A stretch of 64,000 nucleotides of DNA from Arenicella xantha. GTDB taxonomy: Bacteria > Pseudomonadota > Gammaproteobacteria > Arenicellales > Arenicellaceae. Position numbers and translations under genes: made by a program. The notes under the pieces were generated by a model. The model had not been told where the DNA came from. It saw only the letters and a list, made by a program, of their open reading frames with translations, and did no database searches. This document shows, in pieces, positions 6,590 to 46,194 of this stretch (within the stretch, counting starts at the first letter, position 1; each line of letters begins with the position of its first letter). Location: positions 478,206 to 542,205 of the forward strand of contig NZ_QNRT01000002.1 of NCBI RefSeq assembly GCF_003315245.1. The letters are read 5' to 3'.

Positions 6590-7279
6590 ATGAACATTTG
6601 GTCCAAGATGATAACCGCATTACGTGGCGGCGTTAATGAAGCAGGCGAAGCCGTGATTGACGCTCAGGCGTTGCGCATACTTGATCAAGAGATAAGAGAT
6701 GCCTCTGAAGAGCTGAATAAGTCCAAAGACGGTCTCGCATCAATCATCGCACAACAAAAATTGGCTGAGGAAAAGGTCAATACGATCAAAGCGGACATCA
6801 AAAAGAACGAAGGCTTTATTCTTGCCGCATTAGAAAAAAAGGATGAATCATTAGCACAAGAGCTAGCGGTAAGAGTTGCCAACTTCGAAAACCAACTCGA
6901 GAGTGAAACCGAGGCTGCCAAAACGTTTAAACTACAAGCGGACAACTTGCGTGAATCGATCCGAACCGCCGACTCGCAGATAAAGCAACTCAAGCAGCAG
7001 ACCGAAACCGTTAAAGCCACCGAAGCCGTACAGCGTGCGCAAAAAGTAGTCGCCGAACGGCACAGCGGCAGCAACTCAAAGCTACGTACTGCGCTGGATT
7101 CTCTCGATAGAATCCATGAAAACCAGAAGTTAAGCGCCGCAAAAATGGCCGCCGCCACCGAGTTGGCACAAGAGTCTGGTGAATCGTCACTAGATCAAAA
7201 GCTGCGCGATGCTGGCATTACCGGCGCATCGAAAGCCGATGACGTACTGGCACGCATGAAAGCCAAAACAAAGAAGTAA
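6590..7279 (+). CDS. PspA/IM30 (phage-shock protein A / Vipp1) family protein
   Basis: 229-aa all-helical protein. MNIWSKMITALRGGVNEAGEAV…LRILDQEIRDA is the characteristic PspA N-terminus, with coiled-coil heptads throughout. Good RBS ggagataac. Confidence 0.8.
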   Translation: MNIWSKMITALRGGVNEAGEAVIDAQALRILDQEIRDASEELNKSKDGLASIIAQQKLAEEKVNTIKADIKKNEGFILAALEKKDESLAQELAVRVANFENQLESETEAAKTFKLQADNLRESIRTADSQIKQLKQQTETVKATEAVQRAQKVVAERHSGSNSKLRTALDSLDRIHENQKLSAAKMAAATELAQESGESSLDQKLRDAGITGASKADDVLARMKAKTKK

Positions 7280-10479: not shown

Positions 10480-13400
10480 ATGAGCAAAGACGAAACACAA
10501 ATTATTGACAACGCGGTCGCCGAAGCCGGCGCCTACGATGTAATTCGCAAACGCCTTAACGAGCAAGGTTCTAATTTACAGACGCTAGCGCAACAACTGA
10601 ATCAACAACGTTTATCTGAGTTCGGTGGCGTCGAAATCCAAGCCATTGCTCGCACTCGAGTAAGAACCGAAAACAACTGTATAGCACGCGATATTGTGCG
10701 AGTTGGCGATCAGCTTTTATTCGGCTATAACGTGTTTATCGGTCTCAAAAAAGAAACTCATATCGACGACGTTTTTGCCCTATTTGAACTAGTGCAAGAC
10801 GGCGACACCTTTGAGTTACAAGCAGCTGACATCCAAAAATCATTTCTGGCCGACTCTCGTTTCCAAGGCGATTTCGACGAACTGTATCGCTACTATAAGG
10901 AATCTCGCCTGGTTCAATTACGCGTTATCGATGGCAAGCTACTCGCTGGATTCCAAGTGGGCGAACGCGCCACAGACATTCGCGTGTTTCGTTGGGCGAT
11001 CTCCGCTGACGGCAAGCAGTTTGATTACATTGACAATCGCGGGGAACGCGATATCGAGCTTCCCACTCAATACGACTTCGAGTGGATCGAAACCAGTCGC
11101 GACGACTTCGTACATGGCCGACATCCGCACGTTAACATCGCCGACACCGTATTTGTCGAAACCATTAATGGCGAGCTCACGGTCAAGGTTGAGGACAATA
11201 CTGAAGACGGTCTTGGTATCTATTCCGAACAAGTACAAGAAGCCAACCAGTCACTAGACGACGCAAGTATTAGCTATGCCAAGGTTGGCAATCTCATTCT
11301 ATTGGCCGTAACGCCATATAAAGAAGAAAAAACGCGCTACCTCGTCTTCAACTCCCTAACCCAACAAGTCGAGCGCATCGATGCCATTGGGCAGTCCTGC
11401 ATCGGCCTGCCCGAAGGCCACGGCATTATCTTCCCTGGCGGAATTTATTTAGACACGGGCGAATCGAAGTCGTTTCCAGATGACATTAATGGTTTGACCT
11501 TCAAACGCATGATTCGCTCGCCCAACGGCGAAGATGTGCTGTATGTGTTCTACGAGCAAGTCGAAGGCAAGTTCGGATTATTTAGCTACAACCTAATTAC
11601 TCGATCGCTACAAAACCCAATTTTTGGCAATGGTTATGGACTCTTTCCCGACGGCAAGTTGATCGTTTTCTCAGCGGAGGCTGAACCCACTCGTGTACAT
11701 CCAATGCAACTTTGGCAGACCTCGTATATCAGCGCCGAATTTGCCAGCGAACAACCCGAGAGCACTACCGAGCTAGGCAAGATTGGCAACTCAGAATTAG
11801 TCCGCGGCATTTCAGACCTGTTCTCTATTCACCAACTCATTGAGAAAAAAGAAGTATCAATGCGCCACTACGAGGAGCTTCGAGAGGCCACGCGTAAGAT
11901 CTTCGATATGCACTATTGGCTCGACTCCAGCGCACGACCTGAAATTGCCGCTACGTTACGCGAAGTCGGACAAACCTCTGAACTGGTTATCGATGAATTC
12001 GAAAAAGTTCAAAGCATTCAACTGCAATCGAGCCAAGCGCTGAGCGAAGCAAAATCTAAACAGCGCACACTACTAAGTCGTATTCAAACCACCACTTGGG
12101 AAACTGCCGAACAGTTTGTCGCATCGATTCTCGAAATACGTAAGCAACGCGGCCATATCGCCACCATTAAAAGCTACCGCTACATTAATGTCGAAGAGCT
12201 CGAACAACTCGAACAGGCGCTGACTGATGCTGAAACACAACTGGGAACCCAGACCACCGAATTTCTAACCGCAGAAGACTCGCTGCAGTCCTACAGTCAG
12301 CACACCGCCGCATACGCCGAACAAATCGACATGGCTCAAACGAATGCTGAAATCCGCCCCATCATTGAGTCGATTGGCGAGACCACGGCACAGTTAGACT
12401 TGCTCTCGGAACTGATCACCACCTTGAAAATCGACGACACCACAGTGCGAACGCGTATTGTCGACACGATCTCTGAGGTCTACGCCAACCTTAATCAAAC
12501 CAAGGCACGCGGCACGCAAAAGCAAAAGGGGCTCGGCTCAGAAGAAGCAATCGCGCAATTTTCAGCACAATTCAAACTATTCTCGCAGAGCATCACGAAT
12601 GCGCTCAGTGCGTCAGATACACCGGACAAATGTGATGAACAGCTAGCCAAACTATTAGTACAGCTCGAGGATCTGGAGAGCCAGTTTAGCGACTACGATC
12701 AATTTCTTGGCGACATTATGGACAAGCGCGAAGAGATCTATGAATCGTTCGAAGCGCACAAGCAAAGCCTAATGGAAGCGCGACAACGACGCGCACAAAC
12801 TCTGAGTGATTCCGCCGCGCGTATCCTCAATAGCATCGAGAAACGCTCACTTAAATTAGCTAACAGCGACGACCTAAACACTTACTTTGCATCCGATGCC
12901 TTAGTACTCAAGACCGACGAGCTAATCGAACAGTTACGCGCACTTGACGCGCAGATTAATGCCGATGATGTGCAGTCACGATTCAAGGGAATCAAAGAAC
13001 AAGCTATTCGGGCATTACGCGACAAGACCGACATCTATGAAGACGGTGGTAAAGTCATTAAGTTGGGGCCAAAACACAAATTCAGCGTCAACCAACAAGA
13101 ACTCGACCTCACCATAATTCCGCGCAACGATCAGCTCTACTTCCACCTTATTGGTACTGACTTCTATGAGCCAGTAAGCGACCCTAAACTGGCCGATGCA
13201 CAGCAATACTGGTCAATGTCGCTCGAGTCTGAAACACCGGATATCTACCGTGCCGAGACACTCGCATTTCTAGTCCTTGATGCCGCGCGACAAGGGCAAC
13301 ACGAGCTTAGTATGAAGGGTTTATACGAAGTTCTAAAAAAACCAGACGAGCTGACCAAGCTACTACGTGATTTCTCCACGCCGCTTTATAAACACGGCTA

Positions 13401-30921: not shown

Positions 30922-30991
30922 TTGGTTGTAGCTAAGCGGTCTAGCAATGAGATTTATCTCATGTACGCAGGTTCGATTCCTGCCATCCAAA
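30922..30991 (+). pseudogene. Degenerate tRNA-like sequence (cloverleaf with a perfect T-arm but a 6-nt anticodon loop and one acceptor mismatch)
   Basis: Acceptor TTGGTTG/CATCCAA (6/7), D-arm GCTA-AGCGGTC-TAGC, T-arm GCAGG-TTCGATT-CCTGC. The anticodon stem ATGAG/CTCAT leaves only ATTTAT as the loop. Confidence 0.4.
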
Positions 30992-30995
30992 CACT

Positions 30996-31063
30996 AGTAG
31001 CTCAGTGGGTAGAGCAGCGAACTATTAATTCGTCGGTCGCGGGTTCGAGTCCCGCCTACCAAC
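30996..31063 (+). pseudogene. 5'-truncated tRNA-like sequence (tRNA-Asn-like body; loop CTATTAA, anticodon ATT instead of GTT)
   Basis: Canonical D-arm GCTCAGTGGGTAGAGC, anticodon arm GCGAA-CTATTAA-TTCGT, T-arm GCGGG-TTCGAGT-CCCGC and a 3' acceptor strand CTACCAA, but no matching 5' acceptor strand. Confidence 0.45.
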
Positions 31064-32569: not shown

Positions 32570-32759
32570 TGCAATAAATGAAAAGTCTCCTCACTCAATC
32601 CGGAGTGAGGAGCACAACAAAAGGTAAGAGCGTGAGCGATTTTGTTCTGAGATAAGGCGCAACAGGGCACAGGTGAGGCGCGTACAAATTGTACGTAACG
32701 AACCGAGCACTGTTGCAACGAAATATCAGGGCAAAAGTGCCACGCGGGAAAGAATCAAA

Positions 32760-33956
32760 ATGCCCATTTTACAAACAATTAACAAAGGCCATGTTCCCGT
32801 CAAAGTCTATACAGACGATATTGAGCACTCGGCCTACCAACAACTCGTGAATATGTCGCAGATGCCATTTATTCACTCCCATATCGCCGCCATGCCAGAT
32901 GTGCATTGTGGGATTGGCGCTACCGTAGGTTCAGTTATTCCAACCAAGGGCGCCATCATTCCTGCGGCAGTGGGCGTGGACATAGGCTGTGGCATGAACG
33001 CAATTCGTTTAAGTATCAAAGCAGATCAACTGCCCGATAACTTACGCGGATTAAGAAGTGCCATAGAACGTGATGTGCCCGTTGGCTTCAACATGCACAA
33101 ATACGATGCAGTACCCGACTCCACGGTCAGAGCTTTATCTAACGGCTTATCTAACATTTGGGAGAAACACCCAAAGTTGAAAAGCAAACAGAAACAGCCA
33201 TACCAAACCTGGATTCGCCAATTGGCGACCTTAGGCGGAGGCAACCACTTCATCGAATTGTGTCTAGACGAAAACGACGATGTGTGGGTAATGCTGCACT
33301 CCGGCAGTCGCGGTGTTGGCAATGCGATTGGTCAGTATTTTATTGAGATGGCACGGCGCGACATGGAAAAGGTTCAAATGAACCTACCCGACCGCGACCT
33401 AGCCTACTTCAATGAAGGTACGAGCCACTTTAACGACTACATAGAGGCGGTCGGCTGGGCGCAAGACTACGCCATGATCAACCGCCGAGAGATGATGCGA
33501 TTAGTACTCAAAGTGCTAAAAGCAAGATTGCCGAATTTTAAAGTAACGAAAGAAGCAATTAACTGTCATCACAACTACGTGTCAGAAGAGCATCACTTTG
33601 GCGAAACCGTGTTCGTGACCCGCAAAGGCGCGATTAGAGCAAGAGAAGGAGAGTTAGGAATCATCCCCGGCAGTATGGGCGCTAAATCGTTCATCGTAAG
33701 GGGCAAAGGTAACGAAAGCTCCTTCTGCTCTTGTTCACACGGAGCTGGCCGAGTGATGAGCCGCAGCAAGGCAAAACGGTTGTTCAACGAACAAGATTTG
33801 GCAACGCAAACCGCCGACGTGGAATGCAAAAAAGACAAATCCGTCATCGACGAAATACCCGCAGCCTACAAAGACATCGACAAAGTAATGGCCAACCAAA
33901 CCGACCTAGTAGATGTAGTACACACCCTAAAGCAAGTAGTTTGCATCAAGGGCTAA
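32760..33956 (+). CDS. rtcB: RtcB family RNA-splicing ligase (3'-phosphate/5'-hydroxyl RNA ligase)
   Basis: MPFIHSHIAAMPDVHCGIGATVGSVIPT is collinear with the E. coli RtcB N-terminus. The metal-binding His/Cys motifs (…NCHHNY…, CSCSHGAGR) are present. Confidence 0.9.
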   Translation: MPILQTINKGHVPVKVYTDDIEHSAYQQLVNMSQMPFIHSHIAAMPDVHCGIGATVGSVIPTKGAIIPAAVGVDIGCGMNAIRLSIKADQLPDNLRGLRSAIERDVPVGFNMHKYDAVPDSTVRALSNGLSNIWEKHPKLKSKQKQPYQTWIRQLATLGGGNHFIELCLDENDDVWVMLHSGSRGVGNAIGQYFIEMARRDMEKVQMNLPDRDLAYFNEGTSHFNDYIEAVGWAQDYAMINRREMMRLVLKVLKARLPNFKVTKEAINCHHNYVSEEHHFGETVFVTRKGAIRAREGELGIIPGSMGAKSFIVRGKGNESSFCSCSHGAGRVMSRSKAKRLFNEQDLATQTADVECKKDKSVIDEIPAAYKDIDKVMANQTDLVDVVHTLKQVVCIKG

Positions 33957-37033: not shown

Positions 37034-37440
37034 TGACCTTCCATTGATGGAGCGTCACTATACTTGAAATTAGTAAATAGAACGAGTGAGGATGATCTGT
37101 TTTATGTAGTCAGCCTCGGGTGACGATGCGCGTCTAAGTCGTACCTAACCGACCGTTAAAGATCTTTAGCCCCAACTGCCATTTGACGTTAGATTATTGG
37201 TTGCAAGATGCCGTTTTGCAGTAGCGTGTTTTGAGGCGCCTACGCTGCCTTGTGTAAAATTGCCTTAGGCGTGGCTCATATTACAAGGACACCCCTCACT
37301 AGAACAGGTCAGCCTAAAAGTCCTCCATCATTAGAACGTTCCATAAAACTGTAGCGAATACTCGCCCTACTCCTCTAAAAGAAAGGACGGGGGTCAGGAT
37401 CGAGGGAGTCATAGATCAAAAACCTGCCCCTCCTTGCTTG

Positions 37441-37660
37441 TTCCGAATATCAACCCTTTCTGAGTCATCACACCGATATCGTTGAGTACGGCTTCGTCCA
37501 TCGTTTCGGAGAACAAATCGCGATAGTTCTCTAACCGCAACGCCACCGACGGCATATCGAACTCCGTTTCGATTCAATCCAAATTGTCTGGGTAGCTTAC
37601 CTTATCAGGCTGTCATTGTTAATTCGGCTCTGACCCCTTTTCTCTCCCCCTTTTCTTCTT
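37441..37660 (-). repeat. Copy A (shorter, ~80% identical) of a ~300-bp repeat derived from the 3' end of a COG1943/RAYT-like transposase gene plus ~90 bp of conserved flank
   Basis: It aligns with 39720-39935 and 42395-42610. The shared block ccgtttcgattcaat(c/t)(c/t)aaattgtc(t/a)gggtagcttaycttrtcaggctgtcattgttaattcggctctg(a/c)ccccttttc is present. Confidence 0.7.
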
Positions 37661-37702
37661 ATATCGATATCACCAATCGTGGCGGACTAGCATCGAACAA
37701 CG

Positions 37703-37732
37703 CAACACAACACAACACAACACAACACAACA
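37703..37732. repeat. Pentanucleotide microsatellite (CAACA)6
   Basis: caacacaacacaacacaacacaacacaaca seen, ~310 bp upstream of the start of the 38043 gene. Confidence 0.85.
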
Positions 37733-38042
37733 AATCATCGTTCAAGCGTCTGGATACTTCTATAAAAAATAGCGCTGACTGATGGTTATTTCAGAGAAAT
37801 ATACCGCAGATAGAGCAAACGCAGCCACCCAAGGTACAGCGTAAGTCTTTGAACGAAATTAATTCTCAGAAAAACCTTCTAAAGCCGTTCACGTATTTTT
37901 AAAAAAGACTCACTTAATTGAACCATACCTGTTCCGCTAAACACTTATAGGGAAGTACGTGTGTTTCCTCGTCAGGCATCACACAGTCATTAGCGGTGTT
38001 CGCCAACTTTGGTTGAACAATCTAGAAAGCGGAAGGTTTAAT

Positions 38043-39530
38043 ATGGTTCATTTCTCACGTCAATTGTGTCGGTCCTTGTCTTTGTTTTTCACGACTTTGG
38101 TTATTCATGGAATAGTCCTTTCAGCGTCTGCCGCCGAAGTTCCTGAGTATCAGGACATATTTCCTGAGCTGTCGTTAAATGGCAGCATCAACAGAATCCA
38201 AATGACGGAAAGCGGAAAACATCTGGTGGCATTGGTGGAGTCTGCCACTACCGGACAGAATGAACTATTTAGTATTCGCTTAGATAACAGAGTAGCTACC
38301 AAGCTGCATGTACCCTTAAACGGAGGTAACCAGGTTTCAGGTTTCAAAATAAGCCCGAATGGGAATCTGGTAGTGTATCGGACTCAATTTCTTACAGACT
38401 CGTCTGATCAACTATTTAGCGTCTCAATCAATGGTGGTGAGTCCGTCGTACTTAATCCCTTGTTGCTGAGCAATCGCTCTGTGAGGGATTTCTTGATTTC
38501 ACCCAACAGCCAATTTGTTGTTTTTCAAGGTGATATCGATGTCGACGAGAGAAGGGAAGTTTACAGCGTCCCCATTCAAGGAGGTACAGTAATTAAGCTG
38601 AACTCAAATCTTATAAACGGACAGTCTTTATTTGGCCTTGAGATAACGCCGAACAGTGATCGAGTTATCTACAGGAAGACAGACCCGAGCTTTAAGACTG
38701 ATCTTGTCAGTGTGCCAATCGGCGGCGGCTCAGAGGTGCGTTTGCATCCAACACGAACGAACGGCGCATCTGCAAAAAGTTTCGGCACGTATTCCTCGGA
38801 TGGTCGTTCAGTTTTATTGGGGTTTGGCTATGGACTTTTTCAGAGTGAAGATGTTTTTATAGCCACAATCGATGGAAGCACACCGCCACTGCATGTGGTT
38901 AAGCGGTCAACTACCGATTTCAAGATATCTGAAGCGCACTTTACTTTGGATGATCGATTCATCATTTTTCTCGGAAAAAATGAAAGCGCTACATCAAATA
39001 ATCAACAGCACTTATTTAGATCCGACCTTGCTGAGGACGCTGCGCTGGTGCGATTCACACCGATATTACCCAACGCCTTAGGTATTCGCCAACCTTTTCT
39101 TCACCCAGACGGTATCCACGTTGTCTATCGAGCAACACCTAGCACCTCGAATATATTTGAAGTATTTCAGATACCAATTGCCGGTGGCGAGCCAGAGTTA
39201 TTAAGTGGCGTCAGCTCTGCTAATTATACAACCAATGACTTTCTGGTAAGCAGGGATGGTAAACATATAATGTTCAACAAAATTCTATTACCTAGTTTCG
39301 TCCAACAACTATTTGTGACTTCGTTTAATGATAAAAAAACCAGCGCAATTAGCGACACCTTCTTCACCGAATCGGAAAGTACCATTGGCTATGACATAGG
39401 GTCGTCGATCTCAAACTCACTCTTCCTATCGCTAAATCGTGATGCCGTGTTTGTTCCTAAAGTCGAAAATGATGAGCTTTGTGTGCCTATTAAAGTTAAA
39501 AATGGTCGTGTCGCAGTAGTCTGTTTATAG
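38043..39530 (+). CDS. Secreted TolB-like PD40 beta-propeller repeat protein ending in ELCVPIKVKNGRVAVVCL
   Basis: Signal peptide MVHFSRQLCRSLSLFFTTLVIHGIVLSASAA (RBS ggaagg). Repeated blades of the form (F/Y)SxxxxGGxxxxL…(I/F)SP(N/D)…V(V/I)(Y/F). The C-terminal motif is shared with the protein at 58336..60066. Confidence 0.6.
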   Translation: MVHFSRQLCRSLSLFFTTLVIHGIVLSASAAEVPEYQDIFPELSLNGSINRIQMTESGKHLVALVESATTGQNELFSIRLDNRVATKLHVPLNGGNQVSGFKISPNGNLVVYRTQFLTDSSDQLFSVSINGGESVVLNPLLLSNRSVRDFLISPNSQFVVFQGDIDVDERREVYSVPIQGGTVIKLNSNLINGQSLFGLEITPNSDRVIYRKTDPSFKTDLVSVPIGGGSEVRLHPTRTNGASAKSFGTYSSDGRSVLLGFGYGLFQSEDVFIATIDGSTPPLHVVKRSTTDFKISEAHFTLDDRFIIFLGKNESATSNNQQHLFRSDLAEDAALVRFTPILPNALGIRQPFLHPDGIHVVYRATPSTSNIFEVFQIPIAGGEPELLSGVSSANYTTNDFLVSRDGKHIMFNKILLPSFVQQLFVTSFNDKKTSAISDTFFTESESTIGYDIGSSISNSLFLSLNRDAVFVPKVENDELCVPIKVKNGRVAVVCL

Positions 39531-39635
39531 GGGCAAGATAAGCACGACTGGAACCTAGATTGATAGGCTCGCACTGCGAGCCTTAGAGAACGCTACTGAG
39601 GTTTTAGATACCTACAAGTAAAAAGCAAGTAAAAA

Positions 39636-39935
39636 GGGTCAGAGCCGTTTTTTCGTTGGCCGCCCTATTGGGCGATGCTCAACCTCACGACCAAGTAGCT
39701 CAGCAACCTGCGACCGAAACTCATCGGATCCTAATATCAAACCTCTCGGAGTCGTCACACGGGTATCCTTAAGTACCGCTTCGTCCAACTTTCCAGAGAA
39801 CAAATCGCGATACTTCAATAACTGCGACGCCACCGACCGCATATCGAACTCCGTTTCGATTCAATCTAAATTGTCTGGGTAGCTTATCTTGTCAGGCTGT
39901 CATTGTTAATTCGGCTCTGCCCCCTTTTCTTCTTC
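39636..39935 (-). repeat. Copy B of the ~300-bp transposase-tail repeat
   Basis: ~88% identical to copy C over ~300 bp. The embedded ORF 39639..39842 (…LGSDEFRSQVAELLGREVEHRPIGRPTKKRL) matches the C-terminal tail of COG1943 IS200-like/RAYT-type proteins; the Y1 catalytic domain is absent (stop 7 codons upstream of the Met). Confidence 0.75.
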
Positions 39936-39936
39936 G

Positions 39937-42213
39937 TTATTTTTCAATATTAAACCAACTGGGCGTATCAAATTGGGGCTTGGCATTGATGTTCATTTCT
40001 GAATATTCGCCTTTAAATACCACTTCTTTTTTATCCATTAAACGAAACTTATGCGGCCACTGAATGCCGTTTTCCAAAGGGCGGTAATCCGATTCAAGAA
40101 TATAACGCCCATCATCAAAAAGCACTTTGCGAATGTGACCAGTGTCGCGATCTAAACCAATTGCAGGCGATAACAGGTCACCTGTATTCATGATCCACCA
40201 GCTTTGATCTCCGTGTTCTGGTATATCCAATGGACCTAACAACCTGAGCTCATCACTGCGCAAAAAACTTAAGAAGTTTAAATCCATATTATTCAAAAGT
40301 TGGTTTTGCTTGTTCTTTTTTAATGCTGAAATCTCTCCCTTCTTATGTTGCTCTGAACGTTCAGGAGTTCTTAAATACAATTCTTCTAATTCTGGAAGAG
40401 ATTGGGCAACATGCTTCTTAGAAAAATCAAAATATGAGCGAGAAACTTTAACTTTCTGTTGGCTATTTATCGTGGTGAGTGTGGTTGAGAATCTATCGAT
40501 ACTGGTGAGTAGTTCTTTTCCACCAAAGGCATTTCTCAACATCTCAAGCATATGTTTTTCTGTCGGTTCTTGTTCTGCAAGATGTTGATGGCGAATAAGA
40601 GGTTTACCTGCAAGGATGGTTGTTGCTTTGCCTTTCTCTAAAGCTATTTGGCCGTTGATCAATACATACTCTAATCCCTCTGAATATTGCTGAGAGTTTT
40701 CATAAGTGGCTTTATCTTTGAGCTCCGCTAAGTTGAAAATATTAATATCTGCGTAGTGGCCGACAGTTAACCTGCCTCTATCGGCTATGCCGAGAAATTG
40801 TGACGGTAGCGATGTCATACCTCGTATTGCAAATGGCAGGCTTATTAATTTTTCATCGACCACAAATTTACGTATTTTTTTAGTAAAGGCCGCAAAATCG
40901 CGCGGATGTCCCTGTCTGTCCCCGGCTGGCTCAGAGCCGCCATCGGTACTTGTCATCATCCATTCTTGTGTTGCCAACAAACGAATATTGTTCATATCGT
41001 ATAGGCCAATGTTCATCACACTCGCATCGTTTTGGGCGCGTACAATTTTGATAACCGTCTCGAACACAGAAAGGTTGTAGATCTCTGCGACTTCTTTTAA
41101 AGTTTTGCCATTGAGTTCAGGGTTGGCGTCGGCAAACATTAGCTTTCCGGCGCCGCCTCTAATATTTAACATACGTTTGCTGTCTTCTCGTATGCGTGCG
41201 TTTGTTTTAGCCTCTGTTAGCCTGTTGAATAATTGTTCAATGCCACCGGCTAAGGCCCAGTCGGGAAGAGTGTAAGCAAGCAGCGAGCTTCGCGTGGCGA
41301 TATATGGGTGCTGAGCGGCGACAACGTCAACACCTCGAAGGCGCGCATTATTGATTAGTTTTACACCGATATCTGCGCGACCGTAGTTGTGCCTTCCCTG
41401 CGGAGTAAAATGGCTAAAGATAACTCTATTGCCACTTTTCTCTCCGATATCGATGGCCTCAGCAACGGATGCATCATAGCCAATGCCATCGAGAACAGAC
41501 CCCATATCTCTATCGTGTGTGTCGTAAACCCCATTGTATTTACGCGCAATAGACGCAACCGAGATAACCTCTTCGGTAGAGGCGTAGGTAGCGGGTCTAT
41601 AGAATAGACCTGATGATATTCCAAACGCACCTTCTTGCATCCCGCGTTCAATAAACTGTTGCATTGCTTTCAATTGCGCCGGCGTTGGGGCGTCAGCACT
41701 CATTCCCAATACTTTCTGGCGCGCTGCATTAAAACCCACGTAAGAGGCCACATTGGCGCCAATGCCGTGTGCTATGTACTCAGCATATTGTTGTGCAACG
41801 TCATTGTTACCTTGGCCATCAACACCCAAGACAACAGTTGTTACTCCCTGGTATAACTGCGGCAGCATTTTTCTCGCCTCAGGATGCCCTGGCTCAGCGT
41901 GACTGTGCATATCAATAAATCCCGGTGTCACATAAAGTCCGTTGGCTTTGATAACCCGCTTTGCTTTAACTTGGTGGCTATCCGCATCGCCAATAAAAGC
42001 AATTCTTTCACCGGAGATGCCAATGTCCTGATACGCCCATGGATTGCCACTGCCATCTAAAACTTTACCACCGACTATCAAGGTATCAACGGTTGTTAAC
42101 GGAGCAGCATTGGGCTTGGATGCTGAGATCTCATTAGTGTTAGCCGACAGAGTTTGGGGCACGATAAGACAGACTACCAATGACAACTGTAAAAACTTTA
42201 GCCATTTTTTCAT
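39937..42213 (-). CDS. Secreted N-acyl-D-amino-acid deacylase (D-aminoacylase) family amidohydrolase with a ~200-aa C-terminal extension
   Basis: Signal peptide MKKWLKFLQLSLVVCLIVPQTLSA (RBS aaggaaac). Metal-binding motif GFIDMHSHAEP and D-aminoacylase-family collinearity. The stop codon abuts repeat B. Confidence 0.7.
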   Translation of the reverse strand: MKKWLKFLQLSLVVCLIVPQTLSANTNEISASKPNAAPLTTVDTLIVGGKVLDGSGNPWAYQDIGISGERIAFIGDADSHQVKAKRVIKANGLYVTPGFIDMHSHAEPGHPEARKMLPQLYQGVTTVVLGVDGQGNNDVAQQYAEYIAHGIGANVASYVGFNAARQKVLGMSADAPTPAQLKAMQQFIERGMQEGAFGISSGLFYRPATYASTEEVISVASIARKYNGVYDTHDRDMGSVLDGIGYDASVAEAIDIGEKSGNRVIFSHFTPQGRHNYGRADIGVKLINNARLRGVDVVAAQHPYIATRSSLLAYTLPDWALAGGIEQLFNRLTEAKTNARIREDSKRMLNIRGGAGKLMFADANPELNGKTLKEVAEIYNLSVFETVIKIVRAQNDASVMNIGLYDMNNIRLLATQEWMMTSTDGGSEPAGDRQGHPRDFAAFTKKIRKFVVDEKLISLPFAIRGMTSLPSQFLGIADRGRLTVGHYADINIFNLAELKDKATYENSQQYSEGLEYVLINGQIALEKGKATTILAGKPLIRHQHLAEQEPTEKHMLEMLRNAFGGKELLTSIDRFSTTLTTINSQQKVKVSRSYFDFSKKHVAQSLPELEELYLRTPERSEQHKKGEISALKKNKQNQLLNNMDLNFLSFLRSDELRLLGPLDIPEHGDQSWWIMNTGDLLSPAIGLDRDTGHIRKVLFDDGRYILESDYRPLENGIQWPHKFRLMDKKEVVFKGEYSEMNINAKPQFDTPSWFNIEK

Positions 42214-42312
42214 TGTTGTTTCCTTGTTCTTCTTTGCATAAAAACGCATTTATCCAGGTAAATCGTTGGTAGTGTAGTACCCCAAATTATAAGCGAAGTT
42301 CTAAATAAAAAA

Positions 42313-42610
42313 GGGGCCGTTTTTTCGTTGGCCGCCCTCTCGGGCAATGCGCGCCCTCACGACCGAGCAGCTCAGCAACCTGCGCCCGAAACTCATCGGT
42401 TCCTAATATCAAACCTCTCTGAGTCGTCACACGGATATCGTTAAATACCGCTTCGTCCAACTTTCCAGAGAACAAATCGCGAAACTTCTGTAACCGTAAC
42501 GCCACCGGCGGCATATCGAGTTCCGTTTCGATTCAACCTAAATTGTCAGGGTAGCTTACTTTATCAGGCTGTCATTGTTAATTCGGCTCTGCCCCCTTTT
42601 CTTCTGGGTT
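42313..42610 (-). repeat. Copy C of the ~300-bp transposase-tail repeat
   Basis: The embedded ORF 42287..42514 (…LGTDEFRAQVAELLGREGAHCPRGRPTKKR) is in the same orientation as copies A and B. Confidence 0.75.
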
Positions 42611-42716
42611 TTTCTCAAGTTACGAGTGGGCGCACACTCTTCCACAGGTGTCCACATTCTCCTAAATAAATGCTATAGTGACGCGCAAAATTAAATTTTG
42701 AAGGACTAGACTAAGG

Positions 42717-44129
42717 ATGCATTTACGTCAATTCAGCATTGGACTTATATTCTTTTTTTGCGCAGCCAATACCGCCTATGGCGCAGCTTACCGTACGTCT
42801 GAACTAAGCAGTGAGTTTAAGCAAGCTCCTCCTGGTGATGGATCTATAGCTCAGCTTAATGAGCGTTCTATTGTCTACGTCACAAAAGAGAGCTACGGTT
42901 TGGCAATCAGGCTTTTTGATCTCGGCACGCAAACCTCTAAGCTGCTAACTAAAGTTGAAGAAACGTCAGTTTTAGCTGCATCTAGCATTACTGCTGGAGA
43001 AGGTTACGCACTGCTAGATATATTAGGTCGAGTCTATGTGACTGATGGCACCACCACAGGTACAAAATTCATTAAGGACTTTGGGTACGGTTTTGCAGGT
43101 AACGTGGGGTCGGAATTTTCAAATCTCATTGAATCCTATGTGTCGGGCAACGTATTTTATATGCTGGTAAGGAATGTTGACAACGACCAAAATTATGCCC
43201 CAGTCTTATGGCGCTTTGATGCAGGCAAATCACAACTTAATAAATTAAACACTGACGCTTTGGGTATTATAAACGGCGTTACACCCAACAAAGGTGGTAC
43301 TGCGGGATCAGTGACATTACTGACACACAACGTCGGCGGTGGTACCAACGTTTGGAGAAATGATAGCCGTGGCTTTGACAATTTCGAATTGCGTGATTCG
43401 AGCACGTTCGATCTAGGAGATTCACTGGCATTTCGTAACGCCACATCAAACTCTAAGGGCACCTTTTTCTGTGTCATCGGATACGATCAACAAGGAAGTT
43501 ATTCGGCAGATAATTCCGGTTTAATGCGGATATCTAACTCCGGCCAGTTAGATAAACTAACCACGGGTTGTTCAGATACTCCTGTCGTAGTGAATGACAA
43601 ACTCTATTTCCAGAGAATTTCTGGGCAGACGCGAGCAATTTGGGAAACAAATGGAAACGTCGGAGCGATGAATCGACTGCTAATTTTGAACTCTTCTTAC
43701 CCAGTCAATGGATATGAAGGCGTCCAGTCAATCTGCGCAGTTCAACAACATATCTACATTCAAGACTATTCTTACGATCAAGGCGACTCGGACAATGCTC
43801 CGAATCGTTTGTTTAAAATCGATTTACCATCTTCATCAACAGAACACGTTGTGCAACGTCCCCTAACAGGAAGCCTCTTAAGCTGCTCGAAAACAAAAGC
43901 GGCGATTTCAGCGAGTGACTTATTGAGTCGCAAGGCGTTTTTTCTTGATGGTGGCACTCAGAAAATGCGTGTGATTCTGCCTACTGACGCAGTACCAGAT
44001 ATCGAGTTATGGGAATACAATGAGCACTATTACAGCATAGTTCATCTAGATTCGTATCGGACGTCTTATTTCGTCAAGCTAAAACTCACCTACCCCGAAC
44101 TCTCAGCGCTTAATTTGATTTTAGATTGA
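42717..44129 (+). CDS. Secreted hypothetical protein (470 aa)
   Basis: Signal peptide MHLRQFSIGLIFFFCAANTAYGAA. Beta-rich with no family recognised. Confidence 0.5.
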   Translation: MHLRQFSIGLIFFFCAANTAYGAAYRTSELSSEFKQAPPGDGSIAQLNERSIVYVTKESYGLAIRLFDLGTQTSKLLTKVEETSVLAASSITAGEGYALLDILGRVYVTDGTTTGTKFIKDFGYGFAGNVGSEFSNLIESYVSGNVFYMLVRNVDNDQNYAPVLWRFDAGKSQLNKLNTDALGIINGVTPNKGGTAGSVTLLTHNVGGGTNVWRNDSRGFDNFELRDSSTFDLGDSLAFRNATSNSKGTFFCVIGYDQQGSYSADNSGLMRISNSGQLDKLTTGCSDTPVVVNDKLYFQRISGQTRAIWETNGNVGAMNRLLILNSSYPVNGYEGVQSICAVQQHIYIQDYSYDQGDSDNAPNRLFKIDLPSSSTEHVVQRPLTGSLLSCSKTKAAISASDLLSRKAFFLDGGTQKMRVILPTDAVPDIELWEYNEHYYSIVHLDSYRTSYFVKLKLTYPELSALNLILD

Positions 44130-45102
44130 GGCAAAATTGCAGGGAGAAGTAAGTCGTCTACTAGTAGTGGTTAGTGTTTGGGTGACACCGTTTTTGTACG
44201 AGTCCGTTGGACTGTTCGTTTATAAACAAACTAACGCTCACTTTCGATTGCTCGCATTAACTAGAACACAGAACTCATCGACACTGCATTGATCGCTGCT
44301 TAACTTATAAATGCTGCTAAAGGCTCCCATCTATATTCTGGTAAAGGATCGGGACAACCACTCTAACGAAGTGCCGCAAACAGCTGGCTCATCAGTTTTA
44401 CCAATCAATGGTTGGAAAATACGCTTATGACTAGATTAACTCGCCGGTTACGAGCCGCAACTACACACTCGTTCGGTTCCGGCTGGATGCAAAGCTCTCC
44501 AGACAAGCCGTCCCTTCGCTTAAATAAGTTGAATGAGAAAAGTTCACCTAGATAACTCGTTTTCTATAAAAGCGCTTGGCAACCGCGAATCGCGGGTAGC
44601 TTATATAGCTGCCTTCGCACACTCACATTACAATATGCTCTGAACCAACCCAAGACTGAAACCGACTTTCAAACTTGGCGGCGAGCACCGCCCACGACTC
44701 CGAATCAAGCCCGAGCAACCTGAGTAGCAGCATCGCGTTGTGTGTTCTAACCCCACGTCTACCCTCACGCATAATTTACCCAGTGCAATCCACAAGCTCT
44801 AAATGGTGCTTCAGACTAAACGGAATACCTTATATAGCATTTGATGCTTATTTTGCGCCGTTATGTGATGGCAAACGCAGTGAATTACGATTTTTCCAGT
44901 ATGTTTTCCACCGCCGCTGAAGTGAAATTTAGATCTACGTACGCCATGTAAGTTTAAGCAAAGCAATGATTAACGATATCCGTGTGACGTATAAAAGAGG
45001 TTTGATATGATGCACCCTGCTCACCAACCTTTATCTTGGTATTTTTGGTGGTAGTCACTCCACTGTGTTGAACTGAAACACCAAACTTAATAGAGTCATA
45101 TA

Positions 45103-46194
45103 ATGTATACGTTGTTAATCACATTTTTTGTTCTTGCGATCTTCTTTTCTTTCATGTGCTCGCTATGGGAGGCGGTGCTGCTTAGTATTACGCCAACCTA
45201 CGCCCGTATCCAACAACAAAAAGGCACAGCTACTGGCAACTACCTCAACGCATTTAAGCAAGACATTGATCGTCCGTTATCAGCAATTTTGACGCTGAAC
45301 ACCATTGCTCATACTGTCGGTGCGATTGGCGTGGGCGAGCAAGCCGCGGCCATATGGTCCGAAAGCAATCCACTTATTACTCGTTTAGTCGTGCCGGCCG
45401 CCATGACGCTGGCAGTTCTATTATTATCTGAGATTGTGCCCAAGACCATCGGCGCACTTTATTGGCGCAAACTAGCGGGCTTTACGGTTGCTTCGCTACG
45501 ATTTCTACTCGTTGTATTGGCGCCGCTTGTATGGATGAGTCAACTACTAACAAAATTACTCAAGACAGACGGCCACGGCGCAGTGCTGACGCGAAATGAT
45601 TTTCTAGCCATGACAGAAATGGGGGCTGAGGACGGCGTCTTAGAAGCAGTCGAATCGAAGATGTTGGGTAGCATGCTGCGGTTTCAGGGGATCACGGCGA
45701 GCGACGTAATGACTCCACGCACAGTGGTTTCAGCCACTCCCGAAGAACAAAGCATTGGCGACTACTACAACGCACGCAAAAGTACTCAGTTTTCGCGTAT
45801 TCCCACATTCACGCAAAACAATAAAGATCATATTTCTGGTTACATCCTGAAAATGGACGTGATGGAAGCAATGATCGACAATCGTGAAAATGATTCCGTG
45901 GCGAGCTTAAAACGCGACATCATTGCTATTGGTCAAAATTTTGCATTGACTGAGCTATTTACTACATTGATGCAACGCAAAGAACATATAGCCGTGGTAC
46001 TCGATGACTTCGGTGGCATGGCTGGCATCGTCACGATGGAAGACGTGATTGAGACGATGCTGGGTATGGAGATAATAGATGAGACCGATACCGCGACCGA
46101 CATGCGAGTGCTCGCGCAAGGCCTTAGGAAAAAACGAGCCAAATTATTGGGAGCTATCGACTCGGCAGTCACCGATGACAACGTGACCCCATAA
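45103..46194 (+). CDS. CNNM/CorC-family transporter (DUF21 TM domain plus CBS pair; no CorC_HlyC domain)
   Basis: Four TM helices, then CBS-pair features (…GITASDVMTPRTVV… / …HIAVVLDDFGGMAGIVTMEDVIETM). Confidence 0.8.
   Translation: MYTLLITFFVLAIFFSFMCSLWEAVLLSITPTYARIQQQKGTATGNYLNAFKQDIDRPLSAILTLNTIAHTVGAIGVGEQAAAIWSESNPLITRLVVPAAMTLAVLLLSEIVPKTIGALYWRKLAGFTVASLRFLLVVLAPLVWMSQLLTKLLKTDGHGAVLTRNDFLAMTEMGAEDGVLEAVESKMLGSMLRFQGITASDVMTPRTVVSATPEEQSIGDYYNARKSTQFSRIPTFTQNNKDHISGYILKMDVMEAMIDNRENDSVASLKRDIIAIGQNFALTELFTTLMQRKEHIAVVLDDFGGMAGIVTMEDVIETMLGMEIIDETDTATDMRVLAQGLRKKRAKLLGAIDSAVTDDNVTP

Follow-up and report, generated by a model that had tools for sequence, protein, structure and literature searches.

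Internally deleted mini-TIRtron units interleaved with single genes in a variable locus of Arenicella xantha

Why should a repeat of about 300 bp, carrying the tail of a transposase-like gene, alternate with single genes in Arenicella xantha? Within the window, the 64-kb stretch of DNA analysed here, repeat search and blastn resolved three direct copies, A (37441-37660), B (39631-39935) and C (42307-42607), all on the minus strand. Copy B aligned to C with 88% identity over 317 nt (39620-39950 against 42308-42618, E 3e-113) and to A with 88% over 202 nt (37442-37643, E 7e-71), in agreement with the three same-orientation, 80-90% identical copies of a sequence-only reading that preceded this work. 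The same reading had placed an inverted core fragment at 44972-45008, which the repeat search recovered with wider limits (D, 44961-45016, 80% identity over 56 nt). The units A, B and C are mutually 11-12% diverged, share one identical 28-mer (0 expected by chance), and have in common a block of about 95 nt 5′ of the coding remnant. All four copies, counting the relic, fall inside 7.6 kb, with none in the other 56 kb of the window, and a motif-core scan of the 64 kb gave matches limited to 37390-42588, plus one at 40915 within the amidohydrolase gene that is probably due to chance. The repeats and their parts are as follows; M5 and M3 denote the 5′ and 3′ terminal motifs.

39631-39935, minus strand: unit B, the most intact mini-TIRtron copy (repeat search, blastn, alignment, ssDNA fold)
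39631-39655: M3 of unit B, overlapping the stop codon, AAAAAGGGTCAGAGCCGTTTTTTCG on the plus strand
39639-39842, minus strand: mini-ORF of unit B, 67 codons
39843-39860, minus strand: ribosome-binding site (RBS) hairpin of unit B, ATCGAA-ACGGAG-TTCGAT
up to 39905, minus strand: 5′ UTR of unit B
39906-39935, minus strand: M5 of unit B
39615-39636, no strand: outermost 11 nt of M3, tandemly duplicated (CAAGTAAAAAG, twice; sequence comparison)
42307-42607, minus strand: unit C (repeat search, blastn, alignment), with its RBS, on the same strand, mutated to GGAA
42307-42325, minus strand: M3 of unit C, central TCTGAC hexamer lost
42512-42514, minus strand: start of the unit C mini-ORF, which, with its M3-internal stop codon deleted, continues to 42287 (75 aa)
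42578-42607, minus strand: M5 of unit C
37441-37660, minus strand: unit A, truncated on its 3′ side (blastn, alignment)
37619-37660, minus strand: M5 of unit A with a partial tandem M5 copy
37553-37555, minus strand: ATG of unit A, followed by 38 codons of the fused ORF ending at 37441
37383-37432, no strand: degenerate inverted motif-core pair GGAGGGGCAGG ... CCTGACCCCCGTCC in gene orientation (direct reading; motif-core scan match at 37390)
44961-45016, plus strand: relic D, an inverted internal piece of a fourth unit, mini-ORF codons ~22-40 (repeat search, blastn)

Each unit joins the ATG plus a single codon after it, in frame, to a gene's final ~64 codons, with the inverted 3′ terminal motif behind them, and the in-frame deletion spans codons ~3-165, the whole HUH/Y1 catalytic core. 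M5 reads GAAGAAAAGGGG(T/G)CAGAGCCGA(A/T)TTAA and M3 is its inverse, the motifs measuring ~25-28 nt; in unit B the two match as inverted repeats at 18 of 25 positions, and folding of the single strand brings the termini into pairing (z = -2.65). Hardly any variation separates A, B and C over the first ~42 nt, which cover M5 and the beginning of the UTR, and unit A retains the 5′ UTR and the RBS hairpin. The translations of B and C (...YRDLFSGKLDEAV...LGS/TDEFR.QVAELLGRE...GRPTKKR) bear out the earlier statement that each copy ends in the last ~70 codons of a gene, but A keeps only ~38. The ~90-bp block described as non-coding is indeed shared, but it consists of the gene's own 5′ motif, UTR, RBS and start codon. 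A single deletion junction, with MP joined to SVALRL..YRDLF, is common to A, B and C, which supports the earlier view that the unit was propagated whole after one truncation. The copies resemble one another precisely as far as the terminal motif at either end, and the flanks beyond are unrelated, so that the MITE-like character proposed earlier is upheld by discrete ends. The motif-core pair at 37383-37432 adjoins the truncated end of unit A and may be a small TIR dimer, and relic D lies between a pseudogene remnant and the conserved upstream region of CNNM. A scan for promoters and terminators gave counts no higher than in shuffled sequence, and Rfam detected no RNA or DNA family in the repeat region. 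In the strain's short-read assembly a break falls within unit C.

The parentage of the units can be traced through this C-terminal remnant. TIRYT or subclass 2.1 Y1 proteins form the second-largest group of RAYT-like genes, and to our knowledge there is no biochemical demonstration of a TIRYT acting on its own TIRs, nor any demonstrated activity. Lineage L002 has a full-length Y1_Tnp gene whose C-terminus is, at 57% identity, the nearest homolog of the mini-ORF, and the upstream flank of this gene matches the supposed non-coding block of the window motif for motif, through the ATG. A phmmer search of 1.8 billion proteins returned 48 matches, all to the C-terminal extension region, and phmmer, alignment and tblastn together place this extension (..YRxLF..IR..T..G..LG...F......GRR......GRPxK) in the units. 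The closest full-length relative has a Y1 core (Y1_Tnp, 5.6e-14; REP_Tyr_transpos, 68 bits against a cutoff of 80), and matching inverted motifs flank all full-length relatives examined (L002, L005, L006-L012, L017, L018). These relatives form a family with an NHVH motif, ~230-238 aa, a C-terminal extension and TIRs containing GGGGWSAS; NHVH, ~230 aa, a C-terminal extension and GGGGWSAS TIRs are the traits described for TIRYT or subclass 2.1 (PMC3733652, PMC6006769). TIRs of the GGGGWSAS type bound unit B, with the core GGGGGCAG in B and C (G at the W position) and GGGGTCAG / GGGTCAG in unit A and in M3 of unit B. Since both gene ends are kept around the internal deletion, each unit is, judged by its sequence, an internally deleted, TIR-bounded mini TIRYT/TIRtron (TnpA_Y1 subclass 2.1).

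No full-length master gene was recovered in a search of 5.8 billion proteins, which returned only the two A. xantha mini-ORFs, and no close full-length TIRYT is annotated in A. xantha. A tblastn search of the window with the reconstructed L002 protein recovered residues 166-233 only and no HUH (NHVH)/Tyr core, Pfam and NCBIfam gave no domain on the mini-ORFs, and a metagenome scan for the UTR/RBS/ATG pattern gave no match.

The single shared junction and the unrelated flanks argue that the unit multiplied as a MITE-like element. The element family has left further derivatives elsewhere, namely solo motifs and a 114-nt TIR dimer. We consider it rather probable that the copies are deletion derivatives of a TIRtron that were amplified TIR-to-TIR and are now decaying in a variable locus. 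In this view a single in-frame deletion removed codons ~3-165 from a TIRtron and left M5, the 5′ UTR with its RBS hairpin, the ATG, ~64 codons and M3, and at least four intergenic sites then received copies of the ~300-bp product, amplified from TIR to TIR. Most likely, a full-length TIRYT mobilised the unit in trans via the terminal motifs. Such motif-ended elements, like REPs, would tend to settle in short spacers just after stop codons, and the element ends may double as preferred points of breakage and joining. The cassette look of the locus could thus arise because motif-ended elements settle in the spacers of a variable region. On this account the claim that the pattern speaks against ordinary IS activity was overstated, the unit being a textbook non-autonomous deletion derivative. 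Within the window the four copies are confined to 7.6 kb, and a local process fits this at least as well as dispersive transposition. No target-site duplication was found as direct repeats flanking any unit, nor a shared target sequence; Y1 HUH elements (IS200/IS605) make no target-site duplications, so their lack is uninformative rather than supportive. TIRtrons and REPtrons, the class to which the parent of the unit belongs, are reported not to transpose as units (PMC6006769), which counts against mobilisation.

The following genes and remnants lie between or beside the units.

37959-39530, plus strand: gene between A and B, 523-aa ORF of unassigned function (Pfam, signal-peptide check)
39938-42276, minus strand: single-gene module of an amidohydrolase, N-acyl-D-amino-acid deacylase family (Pfam, cross-lineage comparison)
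39937-42213, minus strand: amidohydrolase CDS, 758 aa
42717-44129, plus strand: gene between C and relic D, 470-aa secreted-looking protein, UniRef 'ELWxxDGT repeat protein'
44605-44952, minus strand: pseudogene remnant (tblastn, 49% over 75 aa, E 1e-15)

Signal-peptide-like N-termini in all three flanked proteins make their earlier description as secreted plausible, and the 523-aa ORF likely starts at a later ATG that is followed by a signal peptide. The assignment of this ORF to a PD40 propeller was not borne out, as Pfam gave no PD40 match. Stop codons had also been said to abut the repeat ends, but this is true only of the amidohydrolase, whose stop codon lies 1-2 nt from copy B; the 523-aa gene stops ~100 nt away from copy B, and a terminator hairpin of its own lies at ~39567-39585. 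No relatives of the 470-aa protein at 90% identity or above were found outside A. xantha. In A. chitinivorans a 322-aa gene stands upstream of CNNM in divergent orientation, and the pseudogene is what remains of its ortholog; from 45019 onward the two species are homologous again. The genes next to CNNM are not the same in both. The copies sit in a hypervariable stretch in which genes are replaced one at a time.

The amidohydrolase itself is 98% identical to copies in other Arenicella lineages, with dS of 0.02-0.04 between the window, L013 and L016 against 0.6-1.5 for core genes, which shows its very recent exchange among Arenicella lineages. Its neighbourhood differs in A. chitinivorans and in L013, and in the other lineages it adjoins solo terminal motifs. 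Homology with those lineages gives out at the stop codon on the 3′ side and ~65 nt before the ATG on the 5′ side. One alternative, in which homologous recombination replaced the allele of an amidohydrolase long resident at the site, was rejected: a ~40-nt margin of lower identity upstream of the gene is compatible with it, but identity holds at 97-100% as far as the stop codon, past which the flanks are not homologous, so that the 3′ junction is left unexplained. Against the account of amplified TIRtron derivatives, the units are 11-12% diverged but the junctions of the amidohydrolase are recent (dS ~0.03), and simple old insertions therefore fail as an explanation for the exact junction at the end of unit B. 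The idea of cassettes is partly sustained, in that the amidohydrolase was recently swapped.

These junctions raise the possibility, which we hold to be unlikely, that the motif-ended units are recombination sites that build the array, gene-sized segments bounded by motifs being excised and re-inserted. A Y1 HUH nuclease could nick and rejoin at directly repeated motifs via a single-stranded circle, or a circular 'unit + gene' could integrate into a resident unit by homologous recombination, much as IS26 translocatable units or Campbell integration would; every event would add one same-orientation unit. The alternation of three such units with single genes is what this process would leave. On its 3′ side the homologous amidohydrolase tract breaks off 2 nt away from M5 of unit B in the window, and in L013 and L016 the distance to a solo M5 is 5 nt. 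In L013 and L016 the 97.6%-identical tract runs from motif to motif, with flanks that are 84% identical or unrelated. Adjoining full-length TIRYT genes, single small genes stand between motif copies in L002 (91 aa) and L005 (123 aa), and the copy number of the 28-nt M5 varies among contigs with the same TIRYT protein. The motif centre is a breakage hotspot, with a ~240-bp insert with a CTCTGA duplication at this point in L013 and the TCTGAC hexamer missing from unit C, and partial tandem duplications of the outer end of the motif, seen at M3 of unit B, recur beside it in L002, L006, L019 and L027, five lineages in all.

Against such site-directed shuffling, the motif beside the amidohydrolase stop codon has opposite orientations in the window and in L013/L016, which one conservative site-specific exchange does not predict, and the transferred amidohydrolase tract contains nothing of the unit. 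Divergence between units B and C is 12%, whereas the gene between them differs by 2%. The window contains no TIRYT, and the annotation of A. xantha lists none whose C-terminus is related. Furthermore, gene-sized mosaicism also occurs away from any motif: in lineage L031 a 148-aa gene 96.7% identical to the L013 copy occupies yet another context. Breakpoints that fall at the ends of genes may therefore be no more than the outcome of selection to keep genes intact. The motifs may catalyse the exchange or may merely co-occur with it.

It is still less probable, and in our judgement improbable, that the copies are a static relic of local duplication, in which tandem or segmental duplication multiplied a single decayed TIRtron with no movement of the unit, and unrelated genes were inserted or rearranged between the copies later. 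The clustering of all copies, their age as measured by divergence and the lack of a transposase gene nearby fit this scenario. However, segmental duplication normally carries flanks along, whereas similarity here ends at the motifs; the fourth copy is inverted, and the region is non-syntenic in relatives. A static, syntenic duplication is thus not what the comparison returned, the amidohydrolase being located elsewhere in A. chitinivorans and L013 and the surroundings of CNNM having changed.

Could the mini-ORFs instead be functional small genes, encoding a stand-alone C-terminal DNA-binding domain that acts, for example, as a repressor of the parental transposase? The in-frame fusion to a native RBS and ATG, the intact ORFs of B and C and the near constancy of the first ~42 nt would suit such a role. 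Nevertheless, the mini-ORFs of B and C give a dN/dS of 1.0, which indicates neutral evolution without selection at the protein level and leads us to reject the small-protein reading as very improbable. In unit C the RBS is mutated and the stop codon gone, the 3′ part of copy A is missing, and the AlphaFold model consists of three loose helices (pTM 0.36) with no significant fold match in the PDB by Foldseek; a PDB sequence search with a profile of the C-terminal domain likewise gave no significant match, and the HTH/DnaA_C assignment published for the C-terminal extension of TIRYT or subclass 2.1 was therefore not corroborated. The copies are now decaying, as shown by the divergence among the units, the truncation of A, the damaged M3 of C, the 56-nt stub of D and the neutral evolution of the mini-ORF.

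Barely conceivable, finally, is an integron-like accretion, in which a tyrosine recombinase inserts modules at the 3′ end of a RAYT-like gene and each module brings a replacement 3′ end: direct repeats with a gene 3′ end do alternate with single genes, and a Phage_integrase gene lies 1.2 kb upstream of TIRYT in L006, but every repeat also has the 5′ motif, UTR, ATG and the same internal deletion, an intact target gene stands at neither end of the array, the 64-kb window yielded no integrase, recombinase or Y1 transposase gene (Pfam on the large ORFs tested; tblastn), and no Rfam or attC-like family occurs in the region. The missing integrase and the 5′ end in every unit thus lead us to reject both the integron reading and the 3′-end re-creation part of the cassette proposal, and the cognate tyrosine or Y1 recombinase suggested in the sequence-only reading was not found within the window. 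A second repeat family, X, of L013 and L016, checked as an attC-like site, had no inverted-repeat structure and is absent from the window.

Returning to the favoured account, that of amplified and decaying TIRtron derivatives, a deletion derivative that was amplified while keeping exactly the two terminal motifs is natural evidence for those motifs as the functional ends of a mobilisable unit, and the ~300-bp unit offers a ready minimal substrate for transposition or cleavage assays. The motif ends coincide with breakpoints of recent single-gene transfer, and the motifs may therefore help to shuffle individual genes. It would be a long shot to propose that the 28-nt TIRYT motif is a Y1 HUH recognition and cleavage site that moves any DNA between two copies; if it were so, TIRtron loci and their mini derivatives would constitute an integrase-free, single-strand-based system of gene capture and exchange, comparable in function to integron cassettes or IS26 translocatable units, and this system would account both for the recent passage of the amidohydrolase module between species and for the small genes between motifs near TIRYT. 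If the coincidence of breakpoints is fortuitous, the locus would be an ordinary decaying MITE cluster in a variable region.

Among known systems, arrays of IS26 translocatable units and integron cassettes resemble the locus in that same-orientation repeats alternate with single genes, at least one of which is horizontally mobile, but the window has no DDE transposase, IntI, attI or attC, its repeats are non-coding relics, and the transferred gene moves without the repeat. MITEs and the PATEs derived from IS200/IS605 are likewise short, have TIRs and no transposase, originate by internal deletion and occur in several copies with unrelated flanks; the parent class of the present unit, in contrast, is regarded as domesticated and single-copy, no target-site duplication accompanies the units, and no cognate autonomous copy was found. 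REPtrons or REPIN-RAYT systems (Nunvar 2010; Bertels & Rainey 2011; Ton-Hoang 2012) also place a Y1 HUH gene between inverted short repeats, which occur non-autonomously elsewhere, typically just 3′ of stop codons, and are targets for other insertions. By direct reading, however, the motif of the window is not self-complementary and has neither a GTAG foot nor a palindromic hairpin; it is low-copy in the available sequence, and the amplified unit contains part of the gene rather than just flanking repeats. The closest likeness is to the TIRtron/TIRYT of Di Nocera, De Gregorio & Rocco 2013 (PMC3733652), equivalent to TnpA_Y1 subclass 2.1 of Quentin et al. 2018 (PMC6006769), with which the parental family shares the Y1_Tnp NHVH core, a length of ~230-238 aa, a C-terminal extension ending in GRPxK, long TIRs with GGGGWSAS (here GGGGTCAG) that overlap the gene ends, and TIR copies that are also single, dimeric or grouped. 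Amplified deletion derivatives of a whole TIRtron unit are not described in PMC3733652 or PMC6006769; the window, which has no TIRYT gene, holds only such ~300-bp derivatives, with both TIRs, the 5′ UTR and the C-terminal third, in three to four copies interleaved with single genes.

The repeat search of the window returned one direct-repeat family of three members together with inverted matches to 44961-45016, and blastn with unit B as the query against the window gave 88% identity to unit C over 317 nt (E 3e-113), 88% to unit A over 202 nt (E 7e-71), and 82% to the inverted relic D over 39 nt. With refined limits, the copies and the genes between them are as follows:

37441-37660, minus strand, unit A
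37959-39530, plus strand, gene of unknown function
39631-39935, minus strand, unit B
39937-42249, minus strand, amidohydrolase gene
42307-42607, minus strand, unit C
42717-44129, plus strand, gene of a protein named ELWxxDGT repeat protein
44961-45016, inverted, relic D

The minus-strand translation of units B and C reads M(R/P)(S/P)VA..L.K(Y/F)RDLFSGKLDEAV...IRVTT.RGLILG(S/T)DEFR.QVAELLGRE..H.P.GRPTKKR, the coding part of unit A comprises the first 38 codons only, and the three copies have in common an exact 28-mer within the block preceding the coding part, with a chance expectation of none. Repeat search, blastn, translations, and this common 28-mer confirm the three-copy repeat and inverted fragment described in the sequence-only reading. 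Two of the internally deleted ORFs inside the units (mini-ORFs) are annotated in A. xantha, on a 1.38-Mb contig, as a hypothetical protein and a ‘transposase’, with neighboring proteins RBP51028-RBP51035. An (ACAAC)n pentanucleotide microsatellite lies at 37705-37735, in the interval separating unit A from the start of the gene at 37959-39530.

In a full HMMER scan, the 73-aa mini-ORF fragment matched 48 proteins, all via the same C-terminal region. With 57% identity, P0003 was the best match; it corresponds to the frameshifted C-terminal portion of a Y1_Tnp gene that occurs at full length on metagenomic contig L002. The DNA directly 5′ of that gene (aaaaagggtcagagccgaattaa...caatttgagttgaatcgaaaaggagttcgatATGcc) aligns with the window block, previously taken for non-coding sequence beyond a truncation point, via the 5′ motif, AATCGAAAnGGAGTTCGAT (where the Shine-Dalgarno sequence occupies the loop of a 6-bp inverted repeat), and the ATG (alignment A4); this alignment identifies the block as the gene's native 5′ terminus. 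The mini-ORF begins at the native ATG and then runs in frame with residue ~166 of a ~230-aa protein. At the 3′ end of the unit, M3 (cggctctgaccc), the inverse of the 5′ terminal motif M5, overlaps the stop codon (alignment A5), and the termini of unit B match as inverted repeats at 18 of 25 positions and pair together in a single-strand fold (z = -2.65). The inverted motif pair was present in every full-length relative examined (L002, L005, L006-L012, L017, and L018). The parent family has an NHVH motif, ~230 aa, a conserved C-terminal extension, and terminal inverted motifs (TIRs) containing GGGGTCAG. These features are those of the TIRYT/TIRtron class, RAYT-like Y1 transposase genes with two TIRs that share GGGGWSAS (Di Nocera et al. 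2013, PMC3733652), and of TnpA_Y1 subclass 2.1, with a median of 238 aa, NHVH, a C-terminal extension, and no REP hairpins (Quentin et al. 2018, PMC6006769). Since the L002 protein scored 68 bits against the NCBIfam REP-associated tyrosine transposase model, under its cutoff of 80, the family is called RAYT-like and not an equivalog. In L006, a Phage_integrase gene and a DUF5131 gene lie directly upstream of the TIRtron. The 73-aa fragment was also matched in 5-10 stretches each (query ~8-49) in P0004 (2352 aa), P0009 (1636 aa), and P0011 (1684 aa), which could be proteins built of repeats or else translations of repeat DNA.

All three units share one deletion junction, at which ATG CCG is joined to TCG GTG GCG ..., inter-copy similarity stops at the terminal motifs, and the flanks outside are unrelated, so that the units are copies of a discrete, TIR-bounded, non-autonomous (MITE-like) element that multiplied after one internal deletion. 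The earlier view that the unit was propagated whole, and not truncated three times, is thereby borne out. No target-site duplication was seen at the units in the window, which argues neither for nor against this reading, because Y1 enzymes of the IS200/IS605 type do not generate such duplications. Outside the window, the TIRtron family occurs in further deletion states, as solo motifs (L019, L020, L022, L023, and L026-L028) and as a 114-nt TIR dimer (L029). One solo terminal motif is embedded in an ORF of ~300 aa (L022 3712-3732 / L028 793-813), an intragenic insertion as reported for some REPs.

The copies have since decayed. Unit-to-unit divergence is 11-12%, and dN/dS between the mini-ORFs of B and C is 1.0 (pS = pN = 0.111), indicating that the peptide is without selection. 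Unit C has a mutated RBS, and its M3 lacks the central TCTGAC, by which the stop codon is gone; unit A is cut after codon 38 and adjoins two degenerate motif cores in inverted arrangement (37383-37432); of relic D, a stub of 56 nt remains. Near-invariance among copies is confined to the first ~42 nt, which cover M5 and the beginning of the UTR, and may reflect element-level constraint or gene conversion. The AlphaFold model of the mini-ORF has three helices (pLDDT 74, pTM 0.36) and no significant fold match in the PDB, and a profile search of PDB sequences gave no match, thus lending no support here to the published HTH assignment.

As a whole, the region lacks the synteny among relatives that the sequence-only reading had named as a mark of a static relic: the CNNM gene (45103-46194) is conserved in A. 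chitinivorans, and its neighbors differ between the species. A 322-aa gene found divergently upstream of CNNM in A. chitinivorans survives in the window only as a pseudogene remnant at 44605-44952 (49% identity across 75 aa), and relic D sits exactly between this remnant and the restart of homology at 45019; what had looked like a 970-nt ‘intergenic’ stretch (44130-45100) is therefore made up of decayed coding DNA and relic D. Gene-sized mosaicism seems general in the genomes compared. A 148-aa gene is 96.7% identical at the nucleotide level between L031 (1663-2116) and the Arenicella-like metagenomic contig L013 (8935-9388), with gene-limited homology and wholly different neighbors, and in L030-L033 it stands within a run of small same-strand genes resembling an immunity-gene or cassette array. 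Single genes in L013 (12165-12425) and A. chitinivorans (L016 9554-9940, 13868-15296, and 17196-17344) are separated by same-orientation copies of a second repeat family, X (~150-340 bp, core AGGCCAATTCACCTCT...GGCTGTCCATRTTTAC), which is unrelated to the units and has no copy in the window. In L016, recA is called as two ORFs of 136 and 193 aa (954-1950), owing to either a frameshift or an assembly error.

Elsewhere in the window, two adjacent tRNA-like elements lie at 30922-31058 (Rfam tRNA 47.6 and 54 bits), and ARAGORN gives one of them an unusual anticodon of 2 nt. Both are covered by a weak YrlA (Y RNA-like) match that scores 25.5 bits, below gathering. A Band_7 gene and RtcB (32673-33956) follow downstream; the tRNA-like pair and RtcB may form a Y-RNA-like/RtcB RNA-repair module.

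All three products of the genes between the units have signal-peptide-like N-termini, in line with their earlier description as secreted proteins; of the stop codons said to abut the repeats, that of the amidohydrolase does adjoin unit B and those of the other two genes do not. The amidohydrolase gene on its own demonstrably makes up a mobile module. In A. chitinivorans (L016) and L013, copies that match exactly window positions 39938-42276 at 98% identity lie downstream of recA...valine-pyruvate transaminase, among neighbors unlike those in the window. Synonymous divergence across the three lineages is 0.02-0.04, against core-gene dS of 0.60 for CNNM (window vs A. chitinivorans) and, for L013 vs L016, 0.84 for valine-pyruvate transaminase and 1.5 for FGGY. 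On the 3′ side, identity is 97-100% up to the stop codon with none past it, and on the upstream side identity is lower across a ~40-nt margin. M5 of unit B begins 1-2 nt after the stop codon in the window, and a solo M5 in reverse orientation relative to the window lies 5 nt after it in L013 and L016, where the high-identity tract spans one solo motif to the next. These results show that the gene was exchanged horizontally and recently and that, in two independent contexts, one of its breakpoints lies at a motif end.

No cognate tyrosine/Y1 recombinase, for which the sequence-only reading had suggested a search, is encoded in the window: tblastn found the Y1 core nowhere in the 64 kb, and the large ORFs tested there contained no recombinase/transposase domain. 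Among 5.8 billion proteins, a word-indexed search recovered the two mini-ORFs and no others, so a close full-length master gene is not annotated in A. xantha. By analogy with REP/REPIN-RAYT systems and IS200/IS605 miniature elements, we infer that a full-length TIRYT would recognize the terminal motifs and mobilize the unit in trans. Motif-ended elements would settle, like REPs, in short spacers 3′ of stop codons; solo motifs in L020, L023, and L005 are found 4-90 nt from stop codons. Such settling, in a locus with gene-by-gene replacement, would produce the cassette-like picture.

The motifs could possibly play a more active role in gene exchange. Their center is a hotspot of breakage/insertion, given that a ~240-bp element, one family X copy, is inserted there within a solo terminal motif in L013 with a 6-bp CTCTGA duplication, and that TCTGAC is deleted in unit C. 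The outer 10-13 nt (CCCCTTTTAC-like) of the motif recur as partial tandem duplications in five independent lineages, which may be a footprint of end processing:

window 39615-39636
L002 3935-3956
L006 ~10700-10735
L019 ~6865-6890
L027 ~1367-1390

The 28-nt M5 also varies from one to three tandem copies among contigs encoding the identical TIRYT protein P0053 (L006 9746-9950; L008 341-441; L009 341-390; L010 280-300), and small single genes lie between motif copies beside the TIRYT genes of L002 and L005. Nevertheless, the opposite motif orientations at the amidohydrolase 3′ junction in its two contexts speak against a simple site-specific mechanism, the transferred tract contains no unit sequence, units B and C are far older than the gene between them, and the 148-aa gene is mosaic with no motif nearby. 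That TIRYT motifs define an integrase-free gene-capture system is improbable, and settling of motif-ended elements beside stop codons is the preferred reading.

Transposable elements are well known to give rise to miniature deletion derivatives, and TIRtron/subclass 2.1, which includes the parent of the window units, is a described class. Loci of this class are said not to move as a unit (PMC6006769). Three points are new relative to PMC3733652 and PMC6006769: the amplification of a derivative in which both TIRs are retained along with the UTR and the gene's C-terminal third, the alternation of its same-orientation copies with single genes, and the fact that motif ends coincide with a very recent transfer of a gene between species.
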